DNA of 64,000 bases from Candidatus Kapaibacterium sp. Its GTDB lineage: Bacteria > Bacteroidota > Ignavibacteria > OLB7. The notes beneath the pieces are model-generated. The model made no database searches, was not told the DNA's origin, and was given only the letters and a program-made list of their open reading frames with translations. The position numbers were made by a program, and so were the translations under genes. Positions 17,354 through 38,300 of the stretch are shown here, piece by piece (positions within the stretch are counted from its first letter, which is position 1; each line of letters begins with the position of its first letter). The stretch lies in NCBI GenBank assembly GCA_035549015.1, contig DASZRW010000112.1:285-64284 (forward strand). Reading direction: 5' to 3'.

Positions 17354-17692
17354 TCACGGGCACGGCTCCACGGTCACGATGCAGGAGTCCTTGCCGACCT
17401 TGACCACCACCTGATCGCCGACTGTCACGTCCAGCACTGCCACTCCGGCAAAGAACGAGCCATCGGCCTTGGCCGTCGTCTCGCGGGTCACCGCGGGGGC
17501 GCCGAGCTTGTACGCCGTCACCGTGGCGCCGCCCGGCACGGAGCCGACGCCTCCTGCCATGACATCACCACCCTGATTTACCGAGCAGTCGTACACGTGG
17601 ATCTTTGTGCAGTCGATCGCAGCAAGCGCAACGGCATATGCCGCCAATGCGAGGACGATGGCCGTGAGGATTCGAGGCGAGATATATTTCAT
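17354..17692 (-). CDS. small secreted protein (112 aa), paralog A of a tandem pair. A transthyretin/carboxypeptidase-regulatory-like beta-sandwich is plausible
   Basis: Signal peptide MKYISPRILTAIVLALAAYAVALA. It shares GSVPGGATVT...ADGSF...C.VTV with the next gene. Start is ATG 17692 (Met48 of the listed ORF). Confidence 0.7.
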   Translation of the reverse strand: MKYISPRILTAIVLALAAYAVALAAIDCTKIHVYDCSVNQGGDVMAGGVGSVPGGATVTAYKLGAPAVTRETTAKADGSFFAGVAVLDVTVGDQVVVKVGKDSCIVTVEPCP

Positions 17693-17798: not shown

Positions 17799-18158
17799 TC
17801 AACGCGTAATCTTGACGGTGCACCTGGTTTCACCGACCGACACTGTCAGGGTGTCGCCGATCGTATGATCGAACCCATCGGGCAGGTCGATCTCCTTGAT
17901 CACGAAGGAACCATCGGCATTGGCCTTGACTGTGACAGTCTTGCCGTTCTTGTCGGTGATGGTGACAGTCGAGCCTCCGGGCACGGACCCGGCCGACCCC
18001 GAGATGATCATCCCGCCGGTTGCGACCGTGCCGCGCGATGCGGTGATCTTGTCGCAATCGGGCTGCGAGACCTGGGCAGTCGCCGTTGCGGTGAAAAGCG
18101 TGGCTGCGATGATTGCCAGCAATGCCAGCGTTGTACGGGGATGGATGCGTGCGACCAT
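17799..18158 (-). CDS. small secreted protein (119 aa), paralog B of a tandem pair
   Basis: Signal peptide MVARIHPRTTLALLAIIAATLFTATATAQ. GSAGSVPGGSTVTITDKNGKTVTVKANADGSFVIKEIDLPDG...RCTVKITR resembles paralog A. Start is ATG 18158. Confidence 0.7.
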   Translation of the reverse strand: MVARIHPRTTLALLAIIAATLFTATATAQVSQPDCDKITASRGTVATGGMIISGSAGSVPGGSTVTITDKNGKTVTVKANADGSFVIKEIDLPDGFDHTIGDTLTVSVGETRCTVKITR

Positions 18159-18542: not shown

Positions 18543-18986
18543 CTACGGCTGCTCGATCAGCACGTCACCGTTGCCACTCAGCAGAGCAGATCCGGTAAAG
18601 ATCAACGCGCCCAGGTCCTCCGCTATCTCGAACACGAGATCCGCCAGCGTCTCGTCGGCCTCGAACGATGGGTCTGCAACGACACCGATAAGAAGTTCGG
18701 CATCCACGATCTGTTGTTGTAGACGATCCTTTGCTGCCGGATCCGAAGCCGGCTGTGTCCGGACGAAGTTGTACAGTCCGAGCAGGATTGTCGAGAACTG
18801 GTCGCCCGGTTCCACGCGTATCATGCTGTTCAATGTCAATGTCGCAGCATCCGTGCGCAGAACGATCGAAGTCCATGCCTGATCGCTGCCGGTCACCACG
18901 ATATCGGCGGTGCCATGGCTGCCGAGCACCGAACGTATCCGTGCATGATCGATGACAGGTGAGACTATTGTGCAGAAGTCGCTCAT
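18543..18986 (-). CDS. putative immunity protein for the upstream WHH-nuclease toxin (147 aa)
   Basis: Its ATG overlaps the toxin stop (ATGA at 18983-18986). The product is a small acidic cytoplasmic protein with no signal peptide, sitting in the canonical position of polymorphic-toxin immunity genes. Confidence 0.6.
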   Translation of the reverse strand: MSDFCTIVSPVIDHARIRSVLGSHGTADIVVTGSDQAWTSIVLRTDAATLTLNSMIRVEPGDQFSTILLGLYNFVRTQPASDPAAKDRLQQQIVDAELLIGVVADPSFEADETLADLVFEIAEDLGALIFTGSALLSGNGDVLIEQP

Positions 18987-21900
18987 TTCTTCTTACCCTT
19001 TCGTTGAGTTCGCGGCCGCCCGCCCGTTGCCTCCCGACCTCCGGAATGACCGGTTTTGCCATGCAGATTCCTGTCTACAAGCTGCAGCCTGACGCCGTCC
19101 TCATGATGATGCCATGTATAATCCGGAATCCTTTCCTCGCCGGCCTGGATCGCACGCAACTGTTCCTCCGTAAACAGCTTCCTGAGTCCGGGCTGACGCT
19201 CCAATTCATCGCGGAGTGCCCTTGTGGCAAATTCAAATTGCGCCCCATCACGTACGGTCGGCCCAATCAGTTCCGGCGGCAAATGTACATCAAACTTCGA
19301 TTCGAATATCGGATACCCGTTCGCATTGAACGGCACCCCGGTCTTCGGGTGCTGCTTCCCGGCCAGATGACCGTTTCGGATCTTTTTCTTCGCGGTCTTT
19401 TGCGCGCCTTCCGCACCAGCTTCCATGGTGCTCGTCGCACGCTCCTCCGGGGTATTCACCTCCTTGTTCCCCGAACTCTCGATATCTGTGTTCCCCGCAC
19501 TCTCGATGTCTGTCCCGTCCGCTGTCTCCTTTCCGTGCTGGGTTCCGGGCTCCTGTCCGGCTTCCGGCGTCCGCTGCTTCGATTGTGAGTTGTCGATTTC
19601 CGATGTCGCCTGCCCTCCATTGCCGGTGGCGCTCTCTTCCGTACCACCGCTCTGGAGCGGCCTCTCCTCCGGCGGCGGCTTCTCACCGCTGCGCATGCCT
19701 TGAATCAGCATGCCGCCATTAACGAGAAGGTTGGCAAACAGAGCCACCATCTGGCTTTGTCGTTCATCGTCGGTGAGCCTGCGATTGTTCAGGATGGCAC
19801 GCGCCTGATCATACGCGTCGGCGCTGAAGATCACGAATCCCGCCGCATCGCCGGCCGTTGCCGCAAATCGCAGGCCTCGGGCAACCGGTTGCGCCACCCC
19901 TTTCAGGAACGATCCGGCTCCCAATGCAGATGCCGCCAGGCCGATAATGTCCATTGCGATCGCGGAAGCAGCGGGATTGGCCTTGCGCAATTCAGCGTAC
20001 AGATCCGTTCCGGCCGACACGGCACCCGTGGCCATTGCGATGTAGAAGAAATACGGCGCCGCCGGCGCACCAAGGCCCGAGGCCGAAAGCGCGATGCCGA
20101 CAAACGCCGCGAACAACGAGATGATCCCGGATCCTTCCGCAACCTTCTTCCAGAACGAAGCTCCATTGGATTCCACGACTTCAACACGAACGGACTTGTG
20201 CCATCCCTGATTCGGCACCTCGAATTGAATTATACCATTGGGGTAGCTGTTGTTCGTTCGGAAATCATCGATGGCAGCACTCAACCCGGAATCCTTGGGA
20301 TCGAATTCCCATGTATCGGCGTTGATATCCGTACCGCTGTATTTCGTGGTTGGCGCACCCGGACTGAGGTCCAGGAAGTAGACCTTTTTCGGGTTTGATA
20401 CAGACCGGCCTACGAACATCATGAGATCGACGGCCTTTCCGGTGGTGCGCGGGACGTAGGAGGCACGCAGCGGTATCAGTTGATGGATGTCGACATCACT
20501 GACCGCGGCGGAGACGTTTTTCCGATACTCCGCCCACTCGTTGAGGCTGTGACGATTCTCCCCGTATTTCTGCCACTGCTTGTTCTCCTTCATTCCCACC
20601 TGCAATGGCGATTCAGTATTGACACGGACATTGTCCTTCTCGACACGAACGGACGACATTTTATCCCGACTCTCGGACTTTGGAGCATCCCAGCCAACCG
20701 CTTCCGCATATTCACGATCGAATCGCCCCGCTTCCTTGGCCCTGCGCAAATACTCGAGCGCTATCGACTCCAGCAGGCTGGAATACGATGTGGCCCCCTT
20801 GCTCCGCATCGCCGCATCGGCGGTCTGCTTGTCCACGGGATCGAGCTCCGCCTTTCCAGCCACATCGATTATTTGAGAAATGGTCAGCTTCCGACCATTC
20901 AGCGATATCGTTGCATTGACCGCATAGCTATTGGCTTCCGTGAAAAGATATTTGTCGCCGTTTTGTATTACGTCGCTCTCGGGGGAGTATTTCGATTTCG
21001 AATGCCATTGAACCAGCCACTCTACCATCGCCTGATCACCGCCGAACATCTTCCTGGTTCCCTGCATCAGATTGAACTGCAGGTTCGAGTCGTCGAGGAT
21101 CCTGACCTGTTGCAGCGCATGCAGATCCACAATTCCCGGGAACCGGGCCGGATCCGGGGAAGTAACCATCCCCCCATCGGGCTGGCCCGTTGCCCACGGG
21201 TTCGGCAGCAGATGCTCACCCGTTTTCGTGTTGACCACATCAATCCAGATTTGATTGCTTTCGATGAGCCACCGGTTCTCCGCCGCCTCGGACACAGCCT
21301 CCGGGCCCTCCTTTGCACACCGCATCAGCCCCAGTCCGCTCCGCAGCGCCGGCCTTGCATTTTCGCGAATGGATTCGGCCATGCTGCGCGCGCCGCGCAT
21401 GCCACGGCTCATAAGGCGGGCAAGTGCCCCGCGGGTAGAGCGCTCGGCATCGTATTCCAGCGATGCGGTGGATCCACCCGGCTCCTCGGTTTCGGAACCG
21501 CGCTGCTGGATGGCGTGCGCCAGCTCGTGGGCTATCAGGCCATCGCCCGCAATTGTTCCGGGCCGATATGCTCCAGCACCGAATACGACATCGCTCCCCA
21601 CGGCAAACGCCCGCGCATCTTCCTCGGCAGCCAGGTGCGCGGCCTCGTCGTTGGTGTGCACGCGAACATGGGCAACGTCCTCGCCGAATGCTTCCTCCAT
21701 ACGTGATCGTACATCCGGCGGCAGCGGACTGCCATCACCAAGCCGCGCGCGAATCTGCTGGACTCGACTTTCGGCGTCGGGGGTCCTGGCCTGCTCGTCC
21801 CCCTCGGCAGCACTCACAGCGGCACTGTATGCCCTGCCAGTTCCATCCTCTGCCGCATCCAGGCCCTGCATAACCGAACGCATGCGCTCCATCCGCTCGG

Positions 21901-22555
21901 TGAACGCGGCGCGCCGGTCGCGTGCGGCAATCATGATGTCGCGCCAGGTGACCATCGGAGGAAGGCTGCCGGGCGCGCCCTCGGGAACATTGGTCATCAC
22001 GAAGGAACGGGCGAAGCGGTGTACGCCATGTCCGATCCGTTCTGCAACCAGCTCGATGTAGCTCTCTGCGCTTGCGGCACCGGCAGCCTCGGGCACATAT
22101 CGTAGAATCGCACGCTCAACCGCCGATGTTGGCTGGGCCCGGTAGTGCCCAAACCAGAAGGTGATCCACGGGCATCCGATTGCCGACCAGGCAGTCCCCT
22201 CGAACGCGGCCTCGGCAACCTCCATCACCCGTGCTTCCAGGTGATCCAGATAGTCGAGTCGCCGCATCTGCCCAGGCCCCACGTGCTCCGCGTCATCATC
22301 AACCAGCCAGCCGGGAAGCGCGGCAGATCCAGGGTTCGAGCGTGAGAGGGAATCCTGGATGCCGGCGCCTCCTTGTTTCACGTGAATGCCCTGAGGAGGT
22401 CTCAGCTCAGACTCCTGATGATCGGTCCGGTCCGGGCTCATCGCCGGGGCCGGTACATCGATGACATGAACAGGTGGCGACAGACGCCGTGGCACCGGCT
22501 TGGAAGCTGGGGTCGTGGTGGAACTGGTACGCTGGTTGTTGTTGGTGGTGCTCAT
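18983..22555 (-). CDS. polymorphic toxin (1190 aa): N-terminal DUF4157 zincin-like domain, central unknown region, hydrophobic membrane segments, C-terminal WHH (HNH/EndoVII-fold) nuclease domain
   Basis: DUF4157 signature PLPPDVRSRMEEAFGEDVAHVRVHTNDEAAHLAAEEDARAFAVGSDVVFGAGAYRPGTIAGDGLIAHELAHAIQQRG (aa ~276-360). Hydrophobic stretch ISLFAAFVGIALSASGLGAPAAPYFFYIAMATGAVSAG...AIAMDIIGLAASALGAG. The C-terminus ...IPDYTWHHHEDGVRLQLVDRNLHGKTGHSGG matches the WHH motif of HNH/EndoVII toxin domains, followed by a Lys-rich tail. No signal peptide. Confidence 0.85.
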   Translation of the reverse strand: MSTTNNNQRTSSTTTPASKPVPRRLSPPVHVIDVPAPAMSPDRTDHQESELRPPQGIHVKQGGAGIQDSLSRSNPGSAALPGWLVDDDAEHVGPGQMRRLDYLDHLEARVMEVAEAAFEGTAWSAIGCPWITFWFGHYRAQPTSAVERAILRYVPEAAGAASAESYIELVAERIGHGVHRFARSFVMTNVPEGAPGSLPPMVTWRDIMIAARDRRAAFTERMERMRSVMQGLDAAEDGTGRAYSAAVSAAEGDEQARTPDAESRVQQIRARLGDGSPLPPDVRSRMEEAFGEDVAHVRVHTNDEAAHLAAEEDARAFAVGSDVVFGAGAYRPGTIAGDGLIAHELAHAIQQRGSETEEPGGSTASLEYDAERSTRGALARLMSRGMRGARSMAESIRENARPALRSGLGLMRCAKEGPEAVSEAAENRWLIESNQIWIDVVNTKTGEHLLPNPWATGQPDGGMVTSPDPARFPGIVDLHALQQVRILDDSNLQFNLMQGTRKMFGGDQAMVEWLVQWHSKSKYSPESDVIQNGDKYLFTEANSYAVNATISLNGRKLTISQIIDVAGKAELDPVDKQTADAAMRSKGATSYSSLLESIALEYLRRAKEAGRFDREYAEAVGWDAPKSESRDKMSSVRVEKDNVRVNTESPLQVGMKENKQWQKYGENRHSLNEWAEYRKNVSAAVSDVDIHQLIPLRASYVPRTTGKAVDLMMFVGRSVSNPKKVYFLDLSPGAPTTKYSGTDINADTWEFDPKDSGLSAAIDDFRTNNSYPNGIIQFEVPNQGWHKSVRVEVVESNGASFWKKVAEGSGIISLFAAFVGIALSASGLGAPAAPYFFYIAMATGAVSAGTDLYAELRKANPAASAIAMDIIGLAASALGAGSFLKGVAQPVARGLRFAATAGDAAGFVIFSADAYDQARAILNNRRLTDDERQSQMVALFANLLVNGGMLIQGMRSGEKPPPEERPLQSGGTEESATGNGGQATSEIDNSQSKQRTPEAGQEPGTQHGKETADGTDIESAGNTDIESSGNKEVNTPEERATSTMEAGAEGAQKTAKKKIRNGHLAGKQHPKTGVPFNANGYPIFESKFDVHLPPELIGPTVRDGAQFEFATRALRDELERQPGLRKLFTEEQLRAIQAGEERIPDYTWHHHEDGVRLQLVDRNLHGKTGHSGGREATGGRPRTQRKGKKK

Positions 22556-25552: not shown

Positions 25553-28500
25553 TTACAGCGTGAAGATCACGTCGTCCAGATTCCGCAGACCGTAGGAGTT
25601 GGTCACCACCACCTTGTACCGATGGTACACCACGGCACCATCCACAAGCTTCGGAAGCGTTCCGGCATTGTACAGCATGGTGGGCGCCGTGGTTGGTGCG
25701 GCCACGAGCTTCCAGTTGCCGTTGCTCTGCATCTTGTAGAGCGCATAGGTGGACTGCACCGACGTAGCATACCAGGTCAGCACCACGTTGCGATACTCCG
25801 TGAGCGCGTTGTTCTGCAGCGGGTCATGGTAGGCATCGTATGTGGCATCGATTGCCGGCGGCACCGGGTTTGCGGAGTCCACCACATTGACCAGCACGAT
25901 CTCCGACGGGAGTGATTCGATCTCCTCGTTGCGCATCTGGCCAAGATGGAGGTAGCTCAACGGGCGCACGCCCGCAAGGCGATAGAAGATCGGCGAGCCG
26001 AACGGCGGATCGATATCGGCGAACAGATCCCGCACAATCCATCCCTCCAACGTCTGCGCCAGCGTTGCCACATCGAACGTGCCGACAAGCGTCATGGTTC
26101 GCGTGCTGGTTGCATCCGCTGCCGTGAGAGCACGATACAGCCGGATGGCAGTGATACCCTCGGCATCGGGATACGGCGTGACGGTGAAGTTCACGGACTG
26201 CTGCAGCCCGAAACCCTGCTGGGCCTCCGCCACGATCACATGACGAATCGCAGGAGCCGCGGATGGGGCTGCGTTCACCAGGCGTACGGGGCCAAGGATA
26301 TCGCTGACGGGACCAACGGCCAGTGTGTTCGAGATCTCGCGGGCACAGTAGAAGAAGATGTTCCGCGATGCTCCGTCCAGCGCGTAGTCCGTGAACCGGA
26401 TTGTTGTGCCGCTGGCCGTACGCCTCACCATCGGATAGGGATTGAAGCCCGGATCCTCCGCGGTGAGCAGTTCACCGTTGGCATCGCGTACCACGGGCTT
26501 CTGCGACGACGTGACGAGCGCATCGTCCACATCCACCAGGCTTGTCAGGATCGGACGCTCGGTAAGCGGCACCATCGCTCCGGCAATCACCTCGCGGATG
26601 TCATCCAGTGCCGAAGGGATCAGCCCCTGCGCCGGATCGCCCGGCAGACGCGACGGCACGAACGCCTTGCGATACGGCGTCGGGTGCGCGGGGTCGTCCG
26701 GGTCGGCCAGGTGCACGGGATCGAACAGCTCCGCGTCGGGATTGTCAGGCACGGGGAACGCGAAGCCGTTGTAGACCTTGAACCGGCGCGCGTTCGGGCC
26801 GGTGGTATCCACCACTCCCGTTACCAGCTCGCGCCACTGGCTGATGTAGGCGTCATCGTGCGCAACACTGTTCAGGTGCGGACGGATAACGTTGTCGATC
26901 GTATCCTGCTTGTAGAGCGCGCGCAGCACTGCCTCCTCGTCGCCCCGGTAGAACACCGCTCCGTACGGCGTCCGGTTTGCAGCCACCGGCATGTCCACGG
27001 AGCAGGATGACTTGCCGTAGAAGTCCGGGCGCGTTGCATAGGCTGGCCCCGAGAGAGCGAGCGGCTTCACCGGATCGGCAACGTTGTGCGCGATCTGCAC
27101 CGCAGCCGGCGTGAGCGACGATGTGTACCCCCGCGGGCTATCCATCGAGTAGGCGGCGATGTAGGTCTGCCGCGTGGGCGCATCGCCGGTCGGCATGATG
27201 TCCGATTCGGGTATGCCGCCGGCAAGCAGATCGATGTAGCCTCGATACGATGGATGGAAGTTCATCGGCACCGTGGCAAAGCCGGTGTGCGGGCCGATGG
27301 TGTCCGAAGGATCGAAGACGTAGATCGTGAACTTCCCCTGGTCCACCAGGAACTTGATTACCTGCACCGCCTTCATGCGTCCGGATGCGGCGGGATCGGG
27401 AACGCGCACCGTACCACGATAGAACTCCACGAACCATGGGTTGTTGGGGTACTGGACGTTGTAGTCAAAGAGCATGATCGTGGGGCAGGTGATCTTGTAC
27501 ACGCCCGGAGGCGCATCGATCGCCGGCGAGCCGGGTGGAACCGTTATCGTATCCACACGCTCGAGTCTGGCGGCCGGCTCGAACAGCCCGCCCACCGTCA
27601 ACGTTCTGCTCTGGCCGTTCTCCACGAGCTGCTCCGTATATACCGGTACCTGCGGATATGGCAAGCGCGTGAAGTCCGCCAGTTGTATGACGCTGCTCGG
27701 CAGAGCCCTCCACCGCGCGGTGTTCGCAAGGTTCTCAACCACCATGAACGTAGTGCCGGCCTTCGGAGGATCGTACGCCTCGGTCTTCTTCACTCCATTC
27801 TCGTCGGTGGTCTCCATCGGCGTCAGGTGGAACCGGGCGTAATTGTTGCCGGCGGCCGTCACCTCAACCACGATGAACCGATGCGTGCTGGTGGCGAAGA
27901 TGCTCCCCACGAACACCTGCTGCGATATCTGGCTCGAGGTCACGATCGGTTCCACGGTGATCGAGCCCTTCGATGGGTCTGCCGTGAGATCCGGATATGC
28001 ATCGGCCTCCACATACACATCGCCATTCCCGGAGATCGACTGCGGGTTCTTCACCACGCCGCGTATCGATACCGGCGCATCGGTACGGAAGAAGAACTGA
28101 ACACGGTCCGCACTCTGGTAGGCGATGTTGTGCACATGATTCCAGTCGAACAGCACGCGCGTCCGCTTGCCGTGGGTTGCGATCTGCGCCTGTTCCGACA
28201 GCGACGTGAGCACCGGTGGAACCTCGCGCTGGATGTACTGCACCGCGAGGTTCGCCGGCGGGAGAAGCGAATTGTACTTCGGGAAACTCGTCGTGATCGT
28301 GTTCGAATACACCCCAATCGCAGAGGCGCGCGAGAACCAGTTGATCCCGAAGATCCCGTACCTGCGAGCGAAGTCGTTCCCCGGCAGGTTCTCGATGCGA
28401 TGCACGAATACCGGGTTACCCGTGTCCGGAATGCCGTGCAGCTCGGGATGCCCGTCCTGATCGGCATACGGAACGTATCCACTCGGCTCGTACTCACCGA

Positions 28501-31500
28501 AGTCGTTCACGGGATATACCTGCCGCCAGTCGCTCGGAGAAGTGCCGTCCGGTTTGGTGATCCGGATGCCGAACTGCATCGGCTTCGTCGCCGTACCATG
28601 ACTGAACTCCGTGGTATCGGCAAAGAAGTCTCCAACGGGAAGGTCGATCGCCACCGTTCCACGATTCACGTTCAGATAGCGTGCATCGGCATAGCGTGTG
28701 TATCCCTGGGAGTCCGTGAAGTCCTCGTGCACCAACGGCTCGATGCTGGCGATCGTCACGGGTGCCGGCAGCCGGACGTCGCTCCGCCCGGTTGGAAGCG
28801 AGAGATAACGATGCGTCATCGCGGTGATGCGTTTCGCCGGGTCAGCCGGTGTCACATACTCGGCCATGTAGATATAGCGCTGTCCGGCGGCGTCGCCGGC
28901 AAGCGGCACATCCGGATCGATCATCCCGAGCCCAAGCATTCGTGCCACGTGGTAGTCCTGTGCGGCCAACAGCAGCATGCGGAGTGCACTGATGTTGATC
29001 GAGCCGCTGTCCGTGGACAACACGGGAGCCTGCGTCAGCCACGCCTCCACCTGAGCGGGATCGACACTCCTCTGCAGGTACGACTCCACCGCCGTGCGTA
29101 TGGACTGCTTTGGATCGCGCTCGAATGCCGGGCGTGAGGGATCGTACGTGGGATCTGCATGACCGTCCGGCAGATAGTGACGGTTGGGAAGCCACCGGTC
29201 CAGGTAGTTCACCACCTTCACCCGTGGGGCCTGGCCCTCCAACGTGTGCCCGTACTTCGGCCATGCTCCGTCCACGTTGAATCGCGTTGTATCCTCCAGG
29301 CGCCTGGCAGCCTCCGTGGTATCCAGTGTCAGCGCATAGTTCCCGATCTTCTTCCAGAGGTACCGGCGATGCGTGGCGGTATAGAAGTCCGCATAGGTTT
29401 CCACCAGCAACGCGCCAGGCGCCCCACCCGAATAGCGGAACCGGAAGTATTGCACGGCCTCGCTCATCACCTTGTGGCGGGTGCCATTCCCCACGAAGCG
29501 CCTGCGCGCGGAGATGAACAGCGGGGCAGCGGCCGCCGAGGGATCCTCGTTGAGCGATATCGCCTCCACACGCGTCGTCATCGCCGCAAGCGACGGCGAC
29601 GTGAGCTCGAACGCAAACATCAGGTTCAGGTCCGTCTCCACCTCCACCGTACCGGTGAAGTTCGCAACGATGTAGGCCACGTCCGCTCCAACGTTCTTCG
29701 GATCGGTCGGCGTGTTGTTCTGGCGCAGCGTCCGGTACGATCCGTCGTCGACAAACCGCAGCGTCAGCGTAACAACGGCCGAGGGGAACAACTGCCTGTC
29801 CACCTGAACGTTCGTATACGTCCAGGTCCAGACACCGCCGTCCTGCGAGACATCTGTGGGACGTTGCTGTGTGGTGGCGCTGAGATCGATCGTGGCCGGG
29901 AAGTACTTCGTTGTATCGGTATCCACGTAGCGCGTGCGATAGATCGCCACGTAATCGTCCGGCTTGTTGTACCCGTACGACGCGAAGTATGGGCTTCCCG
30001 GGCGTGTGTACGGTCCCTTCGGCAGATGACGATTCCCGAGGTCGTTCAGGAACGCCCAGCGCAGGTGCACGCCTCCGGCGCTGCCGTCGCCGCCGTTGTT
30101 GAATCCGTCGGAACCAACAGCCTGCAGGTAAAGGAACTGCGACTGGATGGTGTAGGCCTGCGTATCCTCCTCGCCGCATACATTGCGGCCGACTGCATAG
30201 AGCTTGCTGCGAAGCAGCACGGTTGCCTGGCGCAACTGATCGAGCACCGGGGCGAAGTATGCTACCACCGCGGCATCGGGCGAGCTGCAGCGCAGGCAGT
30301 AGGCGGTGAAGAAGCTGATCGCCACCCGCGCCCGCATGCAGGTTGTAGTGGCGCATGGATCGTCCGCGATCGGCAGGCCAAGCAGCACCGCCTTCGGGAT
30401 CACGAGCGCGTAGAGCGCATCGATCGCCGTACGCAGATCGCTTGGATTCCCCTCCACAAGGTTCACCAGGTCCGTTGCGCCGGCGCGTTCCTGGGCGCTC
30501 ATCCCTCCCACCATCGCACATGCCTTGCAGATGCATTCCAGCAGCTCCAGCCAGTCGTGGCGGAACGCCGTCATGGCCGTTTCCGGCCGCGGCAGGTCGT
30601 TGGCGATCGTGGCTGCGTATGCGGCCGACTGCGCCGCAAGCTGTGCATCCAGATAGTCCACAACCACGCGGGCCTGTGGGGCAAGCTCCTGATACCGTGA
30701 GAATGCCGTGGCCAGCAGGTCCACAACGAACTCCAGCCGGTTGCAGAAGGCGCCGCCGGGAAGCATGGTCTGCGTCAGCCGCAGATTCCGCGCGAGCGAT
30801 GCGATCTCCTGCTGCGTGCGCGTGAAGATGTCCTCCAACGCAATCACCGCCGGCGCACCGGAGGGGGGATCGACGCCGCAGAGCAGATCGGAGTAGCCAA
30901 CGAGACCGTGCAGGTGCGCGCAGATATCAACGGACTCCGCGCAGAACACGACGCCGGCCGCAGCCAGTTGGGCTGTCCACGTGGCATAATCGGCAATGAA
31001 CGTGGCGAGCCCGGAGTTCAGAAGCGTTGCCACGCCGCTCGGCATCGTGCGGCACGGTCCGCATGTCAGATGCAGTGTCCGCAGCACTTCGAAGAGCTTG
31101 TACGCATCGCCGGATGCCAGGCTGGAGGATGGAGCACCGGCGCCGGCTGGAGCGGGCGTGATTGCGTTGAAGAGTGCCGTGATCCGCGAGGAGAACAACG
31201 AGGTGAAGCTCGCCCGCAACGTCGAAGACAACTCGCCGAACCGTAGCGCCGCCACGTACAGGCACTCCAGTCTCCATATCCAGGAGGGGCAGGTGTCGGT
31301 GCAGGTGCCGGTGAACGTGGCGCCGAGCTGCGTGCGCAGACGGTCGTACTCGCCTCGGAGCTGCACGTACTGCGCTTCGAGCTGCGTGCGCTGCGCCGAG
31401 GGAATCGAAAGTCCGTACATGCACGCGAGGCCGAGGAATACCGTGGAGCGCCGAAGCAGCTCGCAGCAGTCCGTGGGGGGCGAGCCAGCGGCGCTCATGG

Positions 31501-34500
31501 GAATGGCGCTCGTATACGGACTCGTGGAGGCGGCCGCCAGCGTCTGATAGATGGCCATGATGTCATCGCAGATCACCGCGTCGAACTGCGTCAACGTTCC
31601 GGGATCGTTCCCCGAAGCCGGCCGGCGCAGCTTGCACAGCTTGCAGAGACAGACGAACAGCGCGAACCAGCGATCGCAGTCCACACAGCTCGCGGCGCAC
31701 GCTACCGGCTTCTCCGCGAGCTGCGGAGCGAGCGTGGCAAGGCTCGCGCAGACACGCGTGATGAAGCAGTCCAGCGACCGACGCACGTATGGGGAGACAC
31801 GGCGGCTGCCGGAGTACACCACCATCGCGAACCCGAACATCACGCGCAGACGCTCGCACAACGACGGGCCGGTGCCCGGAAGCACGCTGGCACCGATCCC
31901 GGTCTCGAGCTGGAGACGGGGCGTAAGCTGTTCGATGCAGGAAAGGCTGGCCTGGAGCTGAATCATCGCCGAGGTGGACCAGATCGAATCCCCCACCGGG
32001 ATATCCACGCAGCAGAGCATGCGGTACATGCGCGGGATCATCGTGAGCTTGTCGCAATCGGCATCAAAGGCCGCGCACGGATCGGAGACGGTGGTCCCCG
32101 CGTTGCAGCAGCTGTCGCTCATCAGACTCCCGGTGGCGCAGCTGATGCTGCCGTCGCCGCCGAAGAACATGTTCGTCGCATAGAGGTTGTGCACCTCGGC
32201 GCGAAGGCAGTGGCGTCCCGGACCGAGATAGAGGGCGATGTCGAACGTCTCGTTGTTGACCATGATCTGCGGCGCCACGGAGTGCACCAGCGTTCCGTCA
32301 ACGTAGATGTCTGCGTAGTCGTCCGCGAAGTACGTGAACGTGATGCGCACGTCGCTGGCGCGGCAGAGACAGAAGCAGCGCTCGAACATCGTTATGCCGA
32401 TGTGGCTGTCGGACGCGCTGGCGTTCAGGGAAATCCAATGCGAGCTCCCGATCACCGGTCGCGATGTACCGCTGGTCACCGTCACCGTAGCCTGCGCAGG
32501 ATTCTTCACCTGGTCATCCACCGTGGTCATCACCCACGGCGCCGTGCCGGTAGCGAGCGTCAACTGCGGTATCGTGCAGCTCGTGCCGCAGAACGGAAGG
32601 CCGTCGTACACATCCTGCACCTGATCCATCTGGGCCTGCAGGTAGGAAACAGTGCCGGAGTCCATGCTGTCGCAGCAGGCGCAGTGTGTTGCGAACCAGT
32701 CGAGCAGGCTTCGGTGAATGTAGGCCCAGCGGTCGATCCCCTGTGCCATGCCGGCAAGCGCCGGATCCGTGGTCACGGTGGTATAGGTCCCTTCCACCAA
32801 CGTTCCCACACCCGTGTTGATGGCGTTCACCGTCTCGGCATAGGTGGGATTCGTCACGTCCGTGTAATAGCGATCGTGATGGCTCACGATGCAGTCCAGC
32901 ACGACGATCCAGTCCTCGCAGAGCGTGTTGACGTTGGAGCAGAGCTCCGGATGCGCATTGTTGAAGGCCGCGTAGGCGTCTGCGAACGCATCCATGAGCG
33001 CATTGAGCGCTGCAAGAAGAATGGGATCGATGCTGCCATGCTCGCAGAGCGAACGGAGGCGTGAGAGAATGGCGGAGAGCTTGGCGCAGAGCATCGCAAA
33101 CGATGGAGTCGTGGCCGGCGGTGCGTAGAGGTTCGAGCCATCGTTGAGCAACCAGTCCAGCTGATCGATGATCGCCCCGAGATCGTCCACGAAGTCATCG
33201 ATCACATCCTGCGGCAGAATCGTCCGCTGGCCGCAATACTTCTTCAGGCAGCGAAGCTTCGGCAGCCAGTTGTCGCACCATCCTGAGGGAATGGAGGTGC
33301 TCGTGCTGCACAGGTTCGGATAGGCCGCCTGGAGCGCATCGACTGCGCTCTGCAACTGCTGCAGCAGGGTCTTCAGGGTGATCAACAGAATCGGATCGAC
33401 GCCGTTTGCGCAGTAGGTGGTGATGTCGCTCTGGATGGTGGAGACCTTCAGGCAGAACAACGCGATGTCATCCAGTTCCGCGGGATCGCTCCGCCCTGGA
33501 ACCGAGTGGTAGATGGCGTCGACGGCAGCGCCCAGCTTGTTGAGCACGGTGGTGCGCAGGTCGTCGGTAAGAATGGCCTTCTCCGAGCAGATGCGCGAGA
33601 GGCAGCCGAGGAGCGAGTTCCACGTGCTGCAATCGGTCATCGGAACCGTGTCCGCACAGATGTCGCCGTAGGTGGCCTTGACTCCCGTCATCGACGACTC
33701 CAACCCCACGAGCAGGTTGTCGAGCTGCGTACGGCGGTTGTGCGACCACGGGAAGAGCGCCTTTGTGCAGAGGAAGGTGAAGTATCCGTCCAAAGTCTGC
33801 ACCATCTGGCAGAGCTGGCTGATATCATGATTCAACTGCCCCACGGGCGGCCGCATATTCAGGAACGTATACGCCGAGGCGAGCTGCGCGTTCAGTGCCG
33901 TGTAGAGTGCGTTCTGCAGCGAGCCGGGGAGCGTCGCCCACTTGTCGCAGAGCTTCTTCAGGCAGTCCAGCAGATCGAGCCAGCGCTTGCAGTAATCCTT
34001 CTCCGGCGGCCGGCAGAGCGTAAGGCTCTCACCTTCCATCACATCGCTCAGCAGTTGCCGCTTGTCGTACAGCCGCGTATACCAGGGTTCGATCGTGGCG
34101 GCCCACGGCGGCAGCGTCAGACGGCTTGCGCCGCACACACGACACCACCAGGCCCAGAAGCTGACGATGTAGCTCAACCGGTCGCAGTCGCTCGAGGGCG
34201 CCGGCGAGATCCAGCCCGGCATTCCCTCGCCTACGGCAATTCCCTGGATCTGCGGGAAGAGGCTGTTCACATCGGCTGCGATGTTGCCGTCGTAGTAGGT
34301 GGTGACGTCCGAGGGAAGCGACGGGCGCCGCGCGCAGAACCGGCAGAAACAATCCAGCAGATCGCGCCAGCGCTTGCAGAGGTCCATGATCTGCGGATCG
34401 ATCACGAGATAGCTCACCGCCACCACGTTCTCGAACGCCTCCTCGTACGGCGAGGTGAAGTCCTCGATAGTATAGCGCTGCGCCCATGTCAACGTGCTCA

Positions 34501-35140
34501 TCGTGGCCATCGCCGCCATGGTGATATCGGTCACGTACTGCGACGTCTCCAACAGGGTCTGCCCGGTGGGGGCCGGGCTTGCTCCGATCGCCGTGGCAAC
34601 CCGCTCCAGCCTGGGCAGTTGCGTGTTGATCGTTGCCTGCAGCGTCGCCACCTCCGCGATACCCACGAAGTTGTTGATCTGCGCCACGCCCAGGCATAGC
34701 CAGCGATAGAAGTTCGAGTAGTTGTAGCGATTGCGGCACAGCCAGTCCGGATCGTAGGAAACCGGATAATCGCGGAAGTCCACCTGGAACGAAACGGAGA
34801 CGGAGCTCGATCCCGCCGGCCCGGACAACATCACCGTCATCGAATACTGCTGCGTGGGAGGCGCCGGCGGTATCGAATACGTGAGCGAGGCGGAACCGCT
34901 GGTTGGTGCCATCGGGTTGCCGCCGCTTATCTGCACATTCACCGGAAGCGACATCGATCCGAACGGTGGCGGATCGAGACCCTTCAGGTGATCGGCGAAC
35001 GTAACAGGAAGGCCCGGCGTCAGCATCGACGTCAGAGTCGTGATCTCCCCTCCGGCGTTGATGGTGATGGTGTACTGGCCGGGCGAGATATTACCGGGCG
35101 CCGTGATCGAAGTCAGCGAGAATAACGCTACCTGGCTCAT
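25553..35140 (-). CDS. giant leaderless protein (3195 aa) with ~9 copies of a novel Cys-containing helical repeat in its N-terminal half. The C-terminal half is beta-rich, of unknown fold, with an FN3-like end
   Basis: A single uninterrupted 9.6-kb ORF with protein-like composition. Repeats include CKRWRDLLDCFCRFC..PSLPSDV, CKRWLDLLDCLKKLC..ATLPGSL, CSTWNSLLGCLSRIC..AILTDDL, CDNWLPKLRCLKKYC..TILPQDV, CEDWIVVLDCIVSH, CDRWFALFVCLCKLC, CPSWIWRLECLY and HDWLELLECICKAC. No signal peptide, no recognisable catalytic motif. Confidence 0.8.
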   Translation of the reverse strand: MSQVALFSLTSITAPGNISPGQYTITINAGGEITTLTSMLTPGLPVTFADHLKGLDPPPFGSMSLPVNVQISGGNPMAPTSGSASLTYSIPPAPPTQQYSMTVMLSGPAGSSSVSVSFQVDFRDYPVSYDPDWLCRNRYNYSNFYRWLCLGVAQINNFVGIAEVATLQATINTQLPRLERVATAIGASPAPTGQTLLETSQYVTDITMAAMATMSTLTWAQRYTIEDFTSPYEEAFENVVAVSYLVIDPQIMDLCKRWRDLLDCFCRFCARRPSLPSDVTTYYDGNIAADVNSLFPQIQGIAVGEGMPGWISPAPSSDCDRLSYIVSFWAWWCRVCGASRLTLPPWAATIEPWYTRLYDKRQLLSDVMEGESLTLCRPPEKDYCKRWLDLLDCLKKLCDKWATLPGSLQNALYTALNAQLASAYTFLNMRPPVGQLNHDISQLCQMVQTLDGYFTFLCTKALFPWSHNRRTQLDNLLVGLESSMTGVKATYGDICADTVPMTDCSTWNSLLGCLSRICSEKAILTDDLRTTVLNKLGAAVDAIYHSVPGRSDPAELDDIALFCLKVSTIQSDITTYCANGVDPILLITLKTLLQQLQSAVDALQAAYPNLCSTSTSIPSGWCDNWLPKLRCLKKYCGQRTILPQDVIDDFVDDLGAIIDQLDWLLNDGSNLYAPPATTPSFAMLCAKLSAILSRLRSLCEHGSIDPILLAALNALMDAFADAYAAFNNAHPELCSNVNTLCEDWIVVLDCIVSHHDRYYTDVTNPTYAETVNAINTGVGTLVEGTYTTVTTDPALAGMAQGIDRWAYIHRSLLDWFATHCACCDSMDSGTVSYLQAQMDQVQDVYDGLPFCGTSCTIPQLTLATGTAPWVMTTVDDQVKNPAQATVTVTSGTSRPVIGSSHWISLNASASDSHIGITMFERCFCLCRASDVRITFTYFADDYADIYVDGTLVHSVAPQIMVNNETFDIALYLGPGRHCLRAEVHNLYATNMFFGGDGSISCATGSLMSDSCCNAGTTVSDPCAAFDADCDKLTMIPRMYRMLCCVDIPVGDSIWSTSAMIQLQASLSCIEQLTPRLQLETGIGASVLPGTGPSLCERLRVMFGFAMVVYSGSRRVSPYVRRSLDCFITRVCASLATLAPQLAEKPVACAASCVDCDRWFALFVCLCKLCKLRRPASGNDPGTLTQFDAVICDDIMAIYQTLAAASTSPYTSAIPMSAAGSPPTDCCELLRRSTVFLGLACMYGLSIPSAQRTQLEAQYVQLRGEYDRLRTQLGATFTGTCTDTCPSWIWRLECLYVAALRFGELSSTLRASFTSLFSSRITALFNAITPAPAGAGAPSSSLASGDAYKLFEVLRTLHLTCGPCRTMPSGVATLLNSGLATFIADYATWTAQLAAAGVVFCAESVDICAHLHGLVGYSDLLCGVDPPSGAPAVIALEDIFTRTQQEIASLARNLRLTQTMLPGGAFCNRLEFVVDLLATAFSRYQELAPQARVVVDYLDAQLAAQSAAYAATIANDLPRPETAMTAFRHDWLELLECICKACAMVGGMSAQERAGATDLVNLVEGNPSDLRTAIDALYALVIPKAVLLGLPIADDPCATTTCMRARVAISFFTAYCLRCSSPDAAVVAYFAPVLDQLRQATVLLRSKLYAVGRNVCGEEDTQAYTIQSQFLYLQAVGSDGFNNGGDGSAGGVHLRWAFLNDLGNRHLPKGPYTRPGSPYFASYGYNKPDDYVAIYRTRYVDTDTTKYFPATIDLSATTQQRPTDVSQDGGVWTWTYTNVQVDRQLFPSAVVTLTLRFVDDGSYRTLRQNNTPTDPKNVGADVAYIVANFTGTVEVETDLNLMFAFELTSPSLAAMTTRVEAISLNEDPSAAAAPLFISARRRFVGNGTRHKVMSEAVQYFRFRYSGGAPGALLVETYADFYTATHRRYLWKKIGNYALTLDTTEAARRLEDTTRFNVDGAWPKYGHTLEGQAPRVKVVNYLDRWLPNRHYLPDGHADPTYDPSRPAFERDPKQSIRTAVESYLQRSVDPAQVEAWLTQAPVLSTDSGSINISALRMLLLAAQDYHVARMLGLGMIDPDVPLAGDAAGQRYIYMAEYVTPADPAKRITAMTHRYLSLPTGRSDVRLPAPVTIASIEPLVHEDFTDSQGYTRYADARYLNVNRGTVAIDLPVGDFFADTTEFSHGTATKPMQFGIRITKPDGTSPSDWRQVYPVNDFGEYEPSGYVPYADQDGHPELHGIPDTGNPVFVHRIENLPGNDFARRYGIFGINWFSRASAIGVYSNTITTSFPKYNSLLPPANLAVQYIQREVPPVLTSLSEQAQIATHGKRTRVLFDWNHVHNIAYQSADRVQFFFRTDAPVSIRGVVKNPQSISGNGDVYVEADAYPDLTADPSKGSITVEPIVTSSQISQQVFVGSIFATSTHRFIVVEVTAAGNNYARFHLTPMETTDENGVKKTEAYDPPKAGTTFMVVENLANTARWRALPSSVIQLADFTRLPYPQVPVYTEQLVENGQSRTLTVGGLFEPAARLERVDTITVPPGSPAIDAPPGVYKITCPTIMLFDYNVQYPNNPWFVEFYRGTVRVPDPAASGRMKAVQVIKFLVDQGKFTIYVFDPSDTIGPHTGFATVPMNFHPSYRGYIDLLAGGIPESDIMPTGDAPTRQTYIAAYSMDSPRGYTSSLTPAAVQIAHNVADPVKPLALSGPAYATRPDFYGKSSCSVDMPVAANRTPYGAVFYRGDEEAVLRALYKQDTIDNVIRPHLNSVAHDDAYISQWRELVTGVVDTTGPNARRFKVYNGFAFPVPDNPDAELFDPVHLADPDDPAHPTPYRKAFVPSRLPGDPAQGLIPSALDDIREVIAGAMVPLTERPILTSLVDVDDALVTSSQKPVVRDANGELLTAEDPGFNPYPMVRRTASGTTIRFTDYALDGASRNIFFYCAREISNTLAVGPVSDILGPVRLVNAAPSAAPAIRHVIVAEAQQGFGLQQSVNFTVTPYPDAEGITAIRLYRALTAADATSTRTMTLVGTFDVATLAQTLEGWIVRDLFADIDPPFGSPIFYRLAGVRPLSYLHLGQMRNEEIESLPSEIVLVNVVDSANPVPPAIDATYDAYHDPLQNNALTEYRNVVLTWYATSVQSTYALYKMQSNGNWKLVAAPTTAPTMLYNAGTLPKLVDGAVVYHRYKVVVTNSYGLRNLDDVIFTL

Positions 35141-35361: not shown

Positions 35362-38300
35362 TCACGTGATCGTCAACGTCACGGTTTCGGTTGGAACCGT
35401 CTGCTCGTTGAACTGGCCGCCGCCGGCATCCACGAGCACTGTAGCGACGTCGTATGTCTGGCCGTTGAACAGCCGGTACTGGAACCCGATCTGAACCGTC
35501 CCGGTGGCCACCACACCGGTACGCGTAGAGATGAAGATGTTCGCGAGATCCTTCGAGAAGATCACCCGCTGATCCGATGCGGCACCGAACCCGGTCAACA
35601 CGATTCCCTTTGCCACTTCCGCCGCCGGAAGCTTCGGATCGTTGAACGGCTCCGGACTGCGAACCAGGATGCCGAGCACCGGGCCGCCGGCGCTCTCGCG
35701 CACGATCGTGAACTCCGTCGTCACCGCCGGCGGCAGCATGTTGATTCGCAGCACACCGTTCACCAGGGCGTCGTACGGAAGCGGGTACTGCGCGCGCAAC
35801 GCCTGGTACGGAGTGGTGTTCGGCACCGTCCCCTCGATCAACGTGCGCGCGGTTGCCACGTCCGTTCCCAACGGAAGCACGTAGTCGAAGATTGCCTTCT
35901 TCGGCTGCCCTCCATCGTTCGGCATCAGATAGCTGCCGATATGCTCCGCAAGGCTGCGATACCGCGATGTCTGGAACACGTAGCGATGCACTTCCCGGTC
36001 CACCGGCGAATCCCCGTCGTTGAAGAACACCGCCGTGAACGACGCCGCATACATGCGATTCGGTTCCAGTGTCACGGGCGTCACCGTGCGGCGCGCCGGC
36101 GGCGGTGTGTTCGGGTCCAGCTGCTCCAGAGGTGTCAACGTTGCACAGTCCGAATTCGGCTTGTTCTGTATCATATACTTGAACAGCCGGAATTCCTTCG
36201 GCTCCTTCGGCGCCGGGTCCTGCTCCCATCGCGGCTCGTCCACCACGATCGCATCGCTCGCCGGCATGGTTGGATCCAGCAGAACGGTCTTCAACGCAAC
36301 GTTCGCGCGCGGCAGCCCCTGGTACTGGTTCCACGTGGCGAACATGGTGTCCATGTAGTCCACGCGATAGTAGAGCGCGAGATGCGCGGATTCGTAGTAG
36401 AGCGGCTTGGCACCGATGATGTTGCCGTCGGCGTTGGGATACGACCGCTCGTAGTCCACATAGTGCTTCAGGTTCGCGTACTTGTACTCCGTCTCGCCAT
36501 GGCTCTGCACAAGCCCGGCATAGGCTTCGTTGTAGGCCGGCGGATTCGCCGCGCCGATCTCGTGGAAGTGGCCGATCGGGCCGGCGGTCCGGAATCCGAA
36601 CGTGTAGTACTTCGTGTACGAGGTGCCGCCGCTGACTACCTCCCTGGTCTTGATCATCACCGCATAGGTCGTGTTCGGCCGCCAGAGCGGCTGCGGGAAG
36701 TCCTTGAGCGCTACCAGCATGTCGTTGGTTGCGTTGCGCACGGCCGTCGGGTCCGGGAGGTCGTCGTTGTAGACATGGTCGGCCTCGGCAAGCCAGCAGA
36801 TCTCGTGCACGTAGGTGTAGCACGGGGCGTTCTGCCCGGTGTCGCAGTCGGCGGCCGGCACGATGGTGATCCGGTCGATCGGCACGTCCTTGTTGTCGTA
36901 CGCCACCTGCTGCGTGAGCTCGGCGCGGGTTCTGGTCTCGCGTTTCATCAACGGATCGTACGGCCCGGCAACCGGTGGCGGGCAAAGCCGTCCGTGGCCG
37001 CCGTGCGTGCCGGTACCATGCACGGCATCGCGCAGATCGTTGTAGCTGGTGAAGATCGACTCCAGCCCGCCCGAAGCATCCACGTTCGCGTAGTCCAGTG
37101 CACGCACGGCGAAGTAGTTGGCGATGGTGCGGCTCTTCCTGCACAGCCCAACGCCCTGGCCTGCCTGGGCCGTTGCCCCCGCCGCATCGGCGAGCGCGAG
37201 CAGCTTCACGTACGCGCCATCCAGCAGCGCGCCGAATGCGCCCTCGAAGCCGGTGCCTGTATCACTGAAGACATCGGCAGGGAGACGGCTGCGGACCGCA
37301 CACGTACGGGCCAGGCAGCGGAACACCGCCAGCCAGCGCTCGCAGAGCGTCTGGCATTGCCCGCTTGCAGCGCTGGACCCCGAATAGTCCGCAACGAGCA
37401 ACTGCAGCGCGTTGTAGAAGGCGAGCATCTCGCTCTCCTGATGCGGGGAGACTCTGGAGAGATCCGTGTAGGCAATCACCAGGATCTCCACATAGCGCGC
37501 CACCATCGTGCAGAAGTCGCTCGCCGGCCAGCTCGCCGGCACGGACGCAAGGCCGTAGATGCTGGCGAGCTGATTGGCCATCGGCGCGAAGTTCTGCATC
37601 AACGTGATGATGTTCGCCAGCGGATACGTGGCGAGTTGGTTCGATGTCGGTGCCACGTTGCAGAGCGCGCGATAGTTCGCTATCAGGGTTGTACGGCGCG
37701 TAACGGGATCCACATGCGGCGAGTCGCAGATCGCCACACGGGAGTCCGCGTCCAGAGCGGAGAGCGCACTCTGGAGCGATGCGAACGCCGATTCCAACTG
37801 CGGCATCGCCCCGGCAACCGCCGTGCTGACCGACGCCGGGAAGCTCTGCCCGCGCAGGCAGCTTGGATAGACATTCGCCAGAATGTTCCGCACGAAGAAC
37901 ATCACGATATCGAGCGGCGCATCGAGCGGCAGCAGGATGATGCCGTTCGATTCCGGCACCACATGTTCCAGCGCGTTCACTGCGGAAAGGATCGAGAAGA
38001 GCACGTTGAAATCGTTCGCCATCTGCTGCACGACGGAGTCCGGCAGATACGTATGGCGATCCAGCAGTGACCTCAGGCACTCCACGATCTCGATCAGGCG
38101 ATTGCAGTCGTTGGAGAGGCCGGATGCGTTGCACACCACGCCGGTGAACGGAGCCAGCTTGCCTGCCTTGAAGGTCACGAGCCCGGCTTCGAAGGCGGCG
38201 ACATGATCGTTCAGATAGGTGACCGCATCCGTCGGCGCGGATGCGCACCGGGTCTGGAGCATCGTCAGCATGTTCGCGATCGCGTTCACCTGGTCGCACC

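Follow-up and report, generated by a model that had tools for sequence, protein, structure and literature searches.

Two overlapping genes on the minus strand of a 64,000-nucleotide stretch of Candidatus Kapaibacterium sp. (contig DASZRW010000112.1; hereafter the window) form a two-gene polymorphic toxin–immunity module, most likely the satellite cargo of an eCIS (extracellular contractile injection system, the "PVC-type" route) whose genes lie in another part of the genome. The first gene encodes a toxin of 1190 amino acids (aa) with an N-terminal DUF4157 domain and a C-terminal WHH-type nuclease domain, the second an acidic protein of 147 aa. The computed evidence comprises the modular architecture, the intact signatures, the polymorphic family, the conserved cassette and, in relatives, the linkage of the N-terminal module to contractile injection system (CIS) genes; from it we infer the steps of the mechanism given below. 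The parts of the module, assigned by pairwise mapping of homologues, an exhaustive HMMER search with residues 420-1040, composition and an AlphaFold2 (AF2) model of the toxin built on 39 sequences, are:

18983..22555, minus strand: toxin gene, 1190 aa, stop codon included, ATG start (list of open reading frames, ORFs; Pfam)
22319..22555, minus strand: toxin residues 1-79, predicted disordered basic tag, MSTTNNNQR...PRRLSPPVH (composition, AF2, paralogue)
21728..22318, minus strand: residues 80-276, helical extension before DUF4157 in one subfamily (homologues, AF2)
21311..21727, minus strand: residues 277-415, DUF4157 / PVC-metallopeptidase core (277-353) and two conserved C-terminal helices (Pfam, AF2)
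20564..21310, minus strand: residues 416-664, unique region (without detectable relatives; low model confidence)
19676..20563, minus strand: residues 665-960, conserved pre-toxin module "MOD" (HMMER family, alignment)
19694..20146, minus strand: residues 804-954, hydrophobic helix set inside MOD (Kyte-Doolittle windows up to 2.02)
19430..19675, minus strand: residues 961-1042, disordered acidic/polar linker (composition, AF2)
18986..19429, minus strand: residues 1043-1190, WHH-type HNH/EndoVII nuclease toxin domain (Pfam, homologues, AF2)
18543..18986, minus strand: immunity gene, 147 aa, acidic, without signal peptide, its ATG within the toxin stop

The toxin stop codon and the start of the immunity gene overlap in the four nucleotides ATGA at 18983-18986. 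The initial annotation of the window had described this pair, and its ORFs, sizes and overlap all stand, with the correction that both genes lie on the minus strand. The same protein and gene order are found on GCA_964643935.1, a metagenome-assembled genome (MAG) named "Candidatus Kapabacteria bacterium", and on the Logan assembly of SRR12170511. The G+C content at third codon positions (GC3) is 0.60-0.74 in the toxin and immunity genes and 0.81-0.85 in the large flanking genes; the lower GC3 at the locus is compatible with its horizontal gain. A scan for promoters and terminators gave a signal no higher than background.

A paralogue of the toxin, P0002, on contig CAZXUY010000084.1 of the same MAG (L006 9839-12466), bears on where the toxin begins. 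The NCBI start is a GTG at codon 154, giving a protein of 1037 aa and affecting the region 22094-22555; it would cut about 75 residues off a conserved, confidently folded domain that is kept in about 30 homologues from residue ~80 onward. The annotated start of P0002 is likewise too short, by 54 codons. The toxin starts MSTTNNNQRTSSTTTPASKPVPRRLSPPVH, the in-frame upstream extension of P0002 begins MSTSNNQRPGSTKSASAPPPRRISPPVH, and the 1190-aa start (ATG at 22555) is correct because the DNA similarity between the two genes begins exactly at ACCATGAGCACCA. Nothing is common before the ATG: the DNA 5' of the two start codons is without similarity, and no common regulatory element is seen there. 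By this comparison the public annotations of both genes are too short at the start, and corrected start codons for two mis-annotated genes are a by-product of the analysis.

Domain architecture of the toxin

Residues 1-79 consist to 66% of disorder-promoting residues, are basic (isoelectric point, pI, 9.95) and are modelled with low confidence (predicted local distance difference test, pLDDT, 34-44). The pattern MSTxNNQR...PRRxSPPVH is common to the toxin and the in-frame extension of P0002, and by analogy with the loading sequences of the AlgoCIS cargos Cgo1 and Cgo2 we regard this tag as a candidate loading signal. The helical extension that follows is 33-52% identical in about 30 homologues and has a pLDDT of 87-98 over residues 81-190.

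The DUF4157 domain is matched by PF13699 (eCIS_core, formerly DUF4157) at residues 277-353 with an E-value of 1.2e-27 and 96.3 bits versus a cut-off of 22, the match spanning profile positions 1-77 of 79. HELAHAIQ at 343-350 and LEYDAE at 366 (family consensus LExDAD) fit the HExxHxxQ-E signature (Zhang et al. 2012); in the AF2 model they lie on helices 335-352 and 363-385, with a pLDDT of 89-97 over the DUF4157 region. The DUF4157 module read from the sequence in the initial annotation is thus borne out, its profile score being well above the curated threshold and its zincin signature intact. The eCIS-toxin literature covered (Geller et al. 2021, PMC8213781; the AlgoCIS work) holds no DUF4157 member with demonstrated zinc-dependent proteolysis or autoproteolysis.

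The 71 matches of a word-based search share with the toxin only residues ~80-415 or just the DUF4157 core; elsewhere these homologues carry Tox-SHH, AHH, GH-E, Endonuclea_NS_2, Aspzincin, HINT, OmpA, lysozyme-like and other domains, and many have two or three copies of DUF4157. P0002 is 49% identical to the toxin over residues 59-453 (52% over 59-413), with residues 1-415 shared; beyond the shared part it runs on into a long stretch of disorder and ends in a small, unrelated domain, and an Imm42 gene lies 16 nucleotides (nt) downstream. One genome therefore holds one address region, two warheads and two antidotes, which is the pattern of a polymorphic toxin system. The constant N-terminus and unrelated tails of the homologues, together with a paralogue that has another tail and its own Imm42 gene, agree with the polymorphic nature proposed initially.

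Behind the N-terminal module, residues 416-664 are unique to the toxin: the exhaustive HMMER search gave matches only from residue ~598 on, mostly from ~664. A hidden Ntox3 domain in residues 365-684 was considered and rejected, as hhalign against the Ntox3-containing region of relatives returned a probability of 0.5%. The "~500-aa linker" described at first is more than a linker: residues ~665-960, hydrophobic helices included, form a conserved module.

This module, MOD, is about 290 aa long. In the exhaustive search 153 protein clusters match it at E<=1e-3, and 72 still do so at E<=1e-10; it has no Pfam, PHROGs, NCBIfam or PDB match, a profile search of the PDB giving only chance-level matches. 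An alignment of the query with 116 matches brings out the motifs L-LF-G, DLTPG, EY-G, N-YP-G and P-N in the soluble part and five Gly/Ala-rich stretches that are hydrophobic family-wide (~811-833, 833-848, 868-882, 905-913 and 938-952). The hydrophobic segments already noticed in the toxin are therefore present, at ~804-954, and conserved across the MOD family; AF2 predicts helices at 799-945. Pfam partners among 39 scanned members are eCIS_core (18), "Ntox3" (13) and Toxin-deaminase (4), with TNT, Ntox46 and TGL found once each and EAD1, EAD7, TPR, DnaJ and GGDEF domains in one member each. The sequences that follow MOD in 133 proteins fall into 75 clusters, of which 58 are singletons, the WHH tail of our toxin being one of these. 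MOD is, by this distribution, a constant pre-toxin element ahead of a hypervariable tail.

A bolder proposal, which we put forward tentatively and with some doubt, is that MOD is an undescribed, widespread device (>150 clusters) that moves the toxin behind it across the target cytoplasmic membrane. If this were true, MOD would here carry a DNase and could explain how injected nucleases get to the cytoplasm; "Ntox3" would be a scaffold, the 147-aa protein would be the first member of a new immunity family, and a genome-specific tag, MSTxNNQR..PRRxSPPVH, would address orphan cargo to a distant CIS. The EAD1, EAD7 and similar partners hint at a use of MOD in intracellular conflict systems too.

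Two observations on the MOD relatives stand beside this. "Ntox3" (PF15536), described as a C-terminal toxin, lies mid-protein in P0081-P0092, where 250-460 further residues follow MOD; it is upstream of MOD in six of the eight relatives checked individually, and after DUF4157 where both are present. This placement suggests that "Ntox3" may be scaffold rather than toxin. The other observation concerns P0014 (L008 10001-14214), the sole word-search relative with both the N-terminal module and MOD, to which the matches from the representative library add about 20 more proteins of this composition. P0014 sits in an array of four DUF4157 genes, and a 229-aa gene overlaps its stop by 4 nt, a coupling as in the window.

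Finally, the disordered linker (pLDDT 31-38) leads into the nuclease; residues 991-1075 are 74% disorder-promoting, with a grand average of hydropathy of -1.39. Likeness to stand-alone WHH proteins begins at residue ~1043. Two profiles match here, PF12639 (Colicin-DNase) at residues 1076-1172 (E 9.4e-20, 71.7 bits versus a cut-off of 25) and PF14414 (WHH) at residues 1141-1175 (E 1.3e-12, 47.7 bits versus a cut-off of 25.1). The signature W-H-H, L, H, HxG, as defined by Zhang et al. 2012, appears as WHHH at 1148, LQLV at 1157, NLH at 1163 and GHSGG at 1169, and its residues are kept in P0073-P0079. With both profiles above their gathering scores, the profile check suggested alongside the initial annotation is positive, and the WHH/HNH tail claimed there is confirmed.

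The AF2 model of the nuclease has a pLDDT of 92-98, with strands at 1146-1150 and 1156-1161 followed by a helix at 1162-1168. A Foldseek search with the full-length model of mixed confidence gave no significant match; the putative beta-beta-alpha-metal fold has support in the sequence matches of the nuclease to the solved Rhs WHH toxins 8h8a and 8bd1 in the PDB (E 4e-6). The region 1076-1190 is basic (pI 9.45). The five closest relatives of the nuclease domain are 56-59% identical and 112-229 aa long; all but one are short WHH proteins that stand alone, and Archangium is the source of two. The C-terminal domain is thus a predicted DNase toxin.

The immunity gene and the nuclease cassette

The 147-aa protein has a pI of 4.07, with 21 D+E and 7 K+R, and no signal peptide. 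A word-based homologue search with it returned itself only, and its homologues were reached via the neighbour genes of the nuclease relatives. Both relative contexts examined (P0073 and P0076) have a 140-aa gene 21-27 nt after the nuclease, and full-length pairwise BLASTP of the window protein against these two gives 31% (E 9e-21) and 28% (E 2e-15) identity. A pattern scan with the resulting three-sequence alignment, in which each species was represented by one genome, added nine loci, of which eight are in Archangium/Vitiosangium and one is in a deltaproteobacterial MAG; in six of the nine, tblastn places the end of a nuclease ~20-30 nt before the immunity homologue.

One of the scan loci is the same Archangium lansingense locus as L003. 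Including the metagenome locus L004, an immunity homologue follows a WHH gene in eight of ten distinct loci outside the window (L003, L004 and L009-L014); seven of these eight are in Archangium/Vitiosangium, and their immunity proteins are 26-32% identical to the window ORF over the full length. Three loci, in Archangium, have two tandem immunity paralogues. Without a nuclease upstream there are two full-length homologues, L015 and L016 (orphan immunity genes), and a weak partial match, L017.

The myxobacterial WHH toxins are ~155 aa long, have Sec signal peptides and are without carrier domains. As these partnered toxins have Sec signal peptides, the small protein goes with the nuclease whatever the export route, as one would expect of an immunity protein rather than of a loading chaperone. 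The pairing marks the WHH nuclease and the 147-aa gene as a predicted conserved toxin–immunity cassette, one that to judge from these loci also occurs in other carrier contexts, namely the Sec-secreted stand-alone toxins of Myxococcota. At this level the immunity function assigned initially is upheld: in other phyla, the gene right behind the closest WHH nucleases encodes a full-length homologue.

No Pfam immunity family matches the 147-aa protein even at E<=1, and Imm-SUKH, Imm28 and Imm37, which are known for WHH, are unmatched; the sole Pfam match is a chance one, Vault_2 at 0.057. NCBIfam and PHROGs give nothing, and a PDB profile search with the immunity family reaches chance level only. 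An AF2 model, made from the single sequence, has a pLDDT of 42 and is unusable. By its homologues the protein represents a putative, as yet unnamed immunity family.

The compact, overlapping arrangement of the pair would also suit an intracellular conflict or abortive-infection effector, or a toxin–antitoxin-like pair, that is never exported and whose membrane module and nuclease would kill the producing cell once the small protein is lost or titrated; the EAD1/EAD7, TPR, DnaJ or GGDEF N-termini of some MOD proteins point the same way. We think this very unlikely. The architecture is that of polymorphic exported toxins, in which the N-terminus is constant, the tails vary and cassettes are exchanged; the N-terminal module is CIS-linked (see below) and the nuclease relatives are secreted; and immunity genes in tandem or orphan copies are characteristic of immunity between bacteria.

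Delivery route and surroundings of the locus

Literature and gene context both bear on an eCIS as the carrier. DUF4157 is the most eCIS-specific accessory domain and usually precedes a toxin, from which a linker of sometimes more than 1000 aa separates it (Geller et al. 2021, PMC8213781); it is present in 36% of known eCIS toxins versus 0.06% of other proteins. The AlgoCIS cargos have a common disordered N-terminal loading sequence, required for loading, and then DUF4157; in S. lividans the baseplate core and a cargo protein are linked by a DUF4157 protein, whose binding to proteins of the CIS spike complex was examined. Most relatives of the N-terminal module are encoded inside CIS operons. 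The complete operon that holds P0015 encodes sheath, tube, baseplate, Pvc16_N, an AAA ATPase (Pvc15-like), P0015 itself, an LGT-like protein (prolipoprotein diacylglyceryl transferase family, PF01790), spike (Phage_GPD), Phage_base_V and gp25; P0008 and P0017 follow a Tail_P2_I baseplate gene, with further DUF4157 genes nearby. In a metagenome scan with residues 80-195 of the extension as query (loci L026-L105), 15 of the 22 loci of at least 8 kb that encode the module have CIS structural genes within 10 kb. On these grounds we consider it fairly probable that a CIS of the eCIS type, encoded elsewhere in the genome, delivers the toxin.

The LGT-like gene recurs beside these relatives as a matter of its own. 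It lies within 10 kb of, or fused to, the N-terminal module in six of the seven contexts inspected (L008 and L021-L025 among those named) and in 18 of the 22 long metagenome loci, usually in CIS operons; in the window, tblastn with five LGT-like probes finds none. No paper in the literature searched has both "contractile injection" and "diacylglyceryl". The idea that transmembrane (TM) helices are general in the CIS-operon relatives of the module was rejected, as a strong hydrophobic window is present in 8 of 33, none of them next to CIS genes.

In the window itself, neither Pfam on the large ORFs nor tblastn with 19 proteins from the operons of relatives (five LGT-like ones and 14 of CIS clusters) turns up a gene for sheath, tube or baseplate, so that the absence noted initially is upheld. 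No CIS gene is found either in the 22 kb around P0002, which lies among ribosomal-protein, dnaX and mraZ/ftsL/mur (cell-division) genes. The initial annotation left the delivery route open; this was fair, but the choice is narrowed by the CIS context of most relatives of the N-terminal module.

Several points weigh against an eCIS cargo. No eCIS operon lies within some ten genes of the toxin gene, an atypical location given that in published classifiers 88% of eCIS toxins lie within ten genes of the operon. CIS genes are absent from the 64-kb window and from the surroundings of P0002, and the CIS is one that we infer for this organism. DUF4157 is found in some T6SS (type VI secretion system) effectors too, and EAD1 or EAD7 appears to take its place in a few MOD proteins. 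Many PVC-type toxins are without immunity genes (Zhang et al. 2012, PMC3482391). In the AlgoCIS cargo, DUF4157 is dispensable for loading and for the toxicity of Cgo1, which makes a releasing role of DUF4157 a conjecture.

The orphan location could further be read as that of a stranded relic, whose injection machine was lost or never present and whose gene pair is kept for protection against neighbours or for addiction. GC3 below that of the flanking genes suggests horizontal acquisition, and the WHH/immunity cassette is otherwise found in Myxococcota; yet the frame of 1190 codons is intact with all motifs preserved, and a second intact paralogue keeps the N-terminal tag, which speaks for selection on the address region. 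We give this reading very little credence. If the toxin is eCIS cargo, CIS-type cargo may be scattered in the genome and recognised by a common N-terminal tag, and this matters for counts of effector repertoires, as current predictors lean heavily on operon proximity.

The same pair might be delivered by a T6SS (e.g., the Bacteroidota T6SS-iii) or another contact-dependent machine. Some T6SS effectors are reported to contain DUF4157, Rhs proteins of T6SS often end in WHH tails (PDB 8h8a, 8bd1), immunity genes next to the toxin are more usual with T6SS than with eCIS toxins, and CIS genes were not found nearby. The toxin, however, has no PAAR, VgrG, Hcp, Rhs, MIX, FIX or LXG domain in Pfam, Pfam on the large ORFs finds no T6SS gene in the window, and the subfamily of the N-terminal module sits in eCIS-type operons of sheath, tube, Pvc16 and Pvc15-AAA genes, not with ClpV/TssBC. 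A T6SS is therefore an unlikely carrier.

Comparably improbable, in our view, is a machine-independent, bacteriocin-like toxin, freed by lysis or in vesicles, that would enter by its own hydrophobic module and use DUF4157 as a processing peptidase. It would account for both toxin loci being far from any CIS gene in the stretches examined, for closest nuclease relatives that are small Sec-secreted stand-alone toxins, and for a hydrophobic module that is mobile and also occurs without DUF4157. Against it, the toxin has neither a signal peptide nor a receptor-binding domain recognisable by Pfam, and the tag and N-terminal module common to both toxins, homologous to CIS-operon proteins, point to a common dedicated carrier.

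For a toxin delivered as eCIS cargo we propose the following course. The N-terminal tag, common with P0002, would direct the unfolded toxin into the lumen of the CIS tube, perhaps aided by a Pvc15-like AAA+ ATPase, and contraction would eject it into or onto a competing bacterium. There the hydrophobic module may insert in the target cytoplasmic membrane and help the nuclease across, by analogy with Tme, Sle1 and Tse6; the DUF4157 peptidase possibly frees the toxin by self-cleavage, as hypothesised by Zhang et al.; and the WHH nuclease would degrade target DNA. In the producer and its kin, the acidic cytoplasmic immunity protein would bind and block the basic nuclease, and the ATGA overlap would favour 1:1 co-production of toxin and immunity protein.

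Other genes around the pair are:

25553-35140, minus strand: giant ORF, 3195 aa, upstream of the toxin, without signal peptide
35362-43773, minus strand: giant ORF, 2803 aa, upstream of the toxin, without signal peptide
43896-51701, minus strand: giant ORF, 2601 aa, upstream of the toxin, without signal peptide
17799-18158, minus strand: small paralogue, 119 aa, just downstream of the immunity gene
17354-17692, minus strand: small paralogue, 112 aa, just downstream of the immunity gene

The giant ORFs have no Pfam, PHROGs or NCBIfam match save weak, sub-threshold fragments of a serine protease (S8 subtilase) in the third, at residues ~393-439 and 885-931. The first two have no PDB sequence match and share weak internal repeats at 20-29% identity. 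The initial suggestion of an export system common to the toxin and these giant neighbours finds no support, none of them being similar to the toxin or having an informative domain; a divergently oriented metallophosphoesterase gene lies between them and the toxin. The two small paralogues are 41% identical (E 9e-14) and have signal peptides and weak Ig-like/prealbumin-like Pfam hints; no link between them and the toxin was found.

Comparison with known systems

Systems of this type are textbook knowledge: polymorphic toxins that begin with DUF4157 and end in an HNH domain entered the catalogue in 2012 and were connected with CIS in 2021, and the main value of the analysis lies in correct annotation. 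Four elements without an entry in the libraries searched are modest leads: the hydrophobic module, the immunity family, the mid-protein "Ntox3" and the near-constant LGT-like neighbour.

The pairing of DUF4157 (PVC-metallopeptidase) with Tox-WHH, and the "PVC" route, are tabulated in Zhang et al. 2012 (PMC3482391), and eCIS toxins are typically built of DUF4157, a long linker and a toxin domain (Geller et al. 2021, PMC8213781). Our toxin is like these PVC-metallopeptidase/eCIS toxins in its N-terminal DUF4157 with HExxHxxQ-E, its long middle and its variable C-terminal toxin. It differs in a gene far from any CIS operon in the DNA examined, an adjacent immunity gene, a helical extension added ahead of DUF4157 and a hydrophobic module that has no annotation. 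The cargos Cgo1 and Cgo2 of AlgoCIS, with a disordered N-terminal domain common to both, DUF4157 and differing C-termini, are mirrored by the toxin and P0002; unlike these, Cgo1 and Cgo2 are encoded in the CIS cluster, without described immunity genes or a hydrophobic module, and their loading has been shown, whereas the toxin is known from its sequence.

Tme (BN159_7576) of Streptomyces davawensis is a CIS-loaded, ejected, tapemeasure-related effector with a Mg-dependent nuclease that causes toxicity (PMC11126660). It resembles the toxin in a DUF4157 near the N-terminus, predicted TM helices, large disordered stretches and a C-terminal DNA nuclease. Tme, however, has 2247 aa, lies inside a CIS cluster and has remote tape-measure homology and an EndA-type nuclease, whereas the window toxin has a WHH-type nuclease, is an orphan gene and comes with an immunity gene. 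A tape-measure reading of the hydrophobic region was rejected at the sensitivity of the PHROGs and NCBIfam searches, neither of which matches the toxin; without a PHROGs tape-measure signal, and with a gene outside a CIS cluster, the toxin is like Tme in design but no member of a Tme-like group.

In prePAAR effectors of the T6SS such as Tse6, which carry a nuclease or NADase, hydrophobic helices are thought to insert in the inner membrane of the target and let the toxin domain through to the cytoplasm. These helices are N-terminal, need Eag chaperones and have a PAAR spike as carrier; in our toxin they are internal, directly before the toxin linker, and no chaperone gene is evident.

As to the nuclease, the WHH toxins of Rhs/Tc type (PDB 8h8a, 8h8b and 8bd1; P0065) belong to the same WHH HNH family, the more distant tail of P0065 being 40% identical to ours. 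They are delivered in Rhs/YD shells by T6SS or Tc-like systems, and P0065 is paired with immunity proteins of the SUKH/SMI1_KNR4 type, unlike the 147-aa family. Closest of all are the Archangium/Vitiosangium pairs (P0073, P0076 and P0077; L003, L004 and L009-L014), which have the same cassette, with the nuclease 57-59% and the immunity protein 26-32% identical. Their toxins differ from ours in being ~155 aa long, with Sec signal peptides and without carrier domains, and several come with two tandem immunity genes. The comparison offers a clean example of a toxin–immunity cassette apparently exchanged between Myxococcota and Kapabacteria, in which the immunity family had not been named before.

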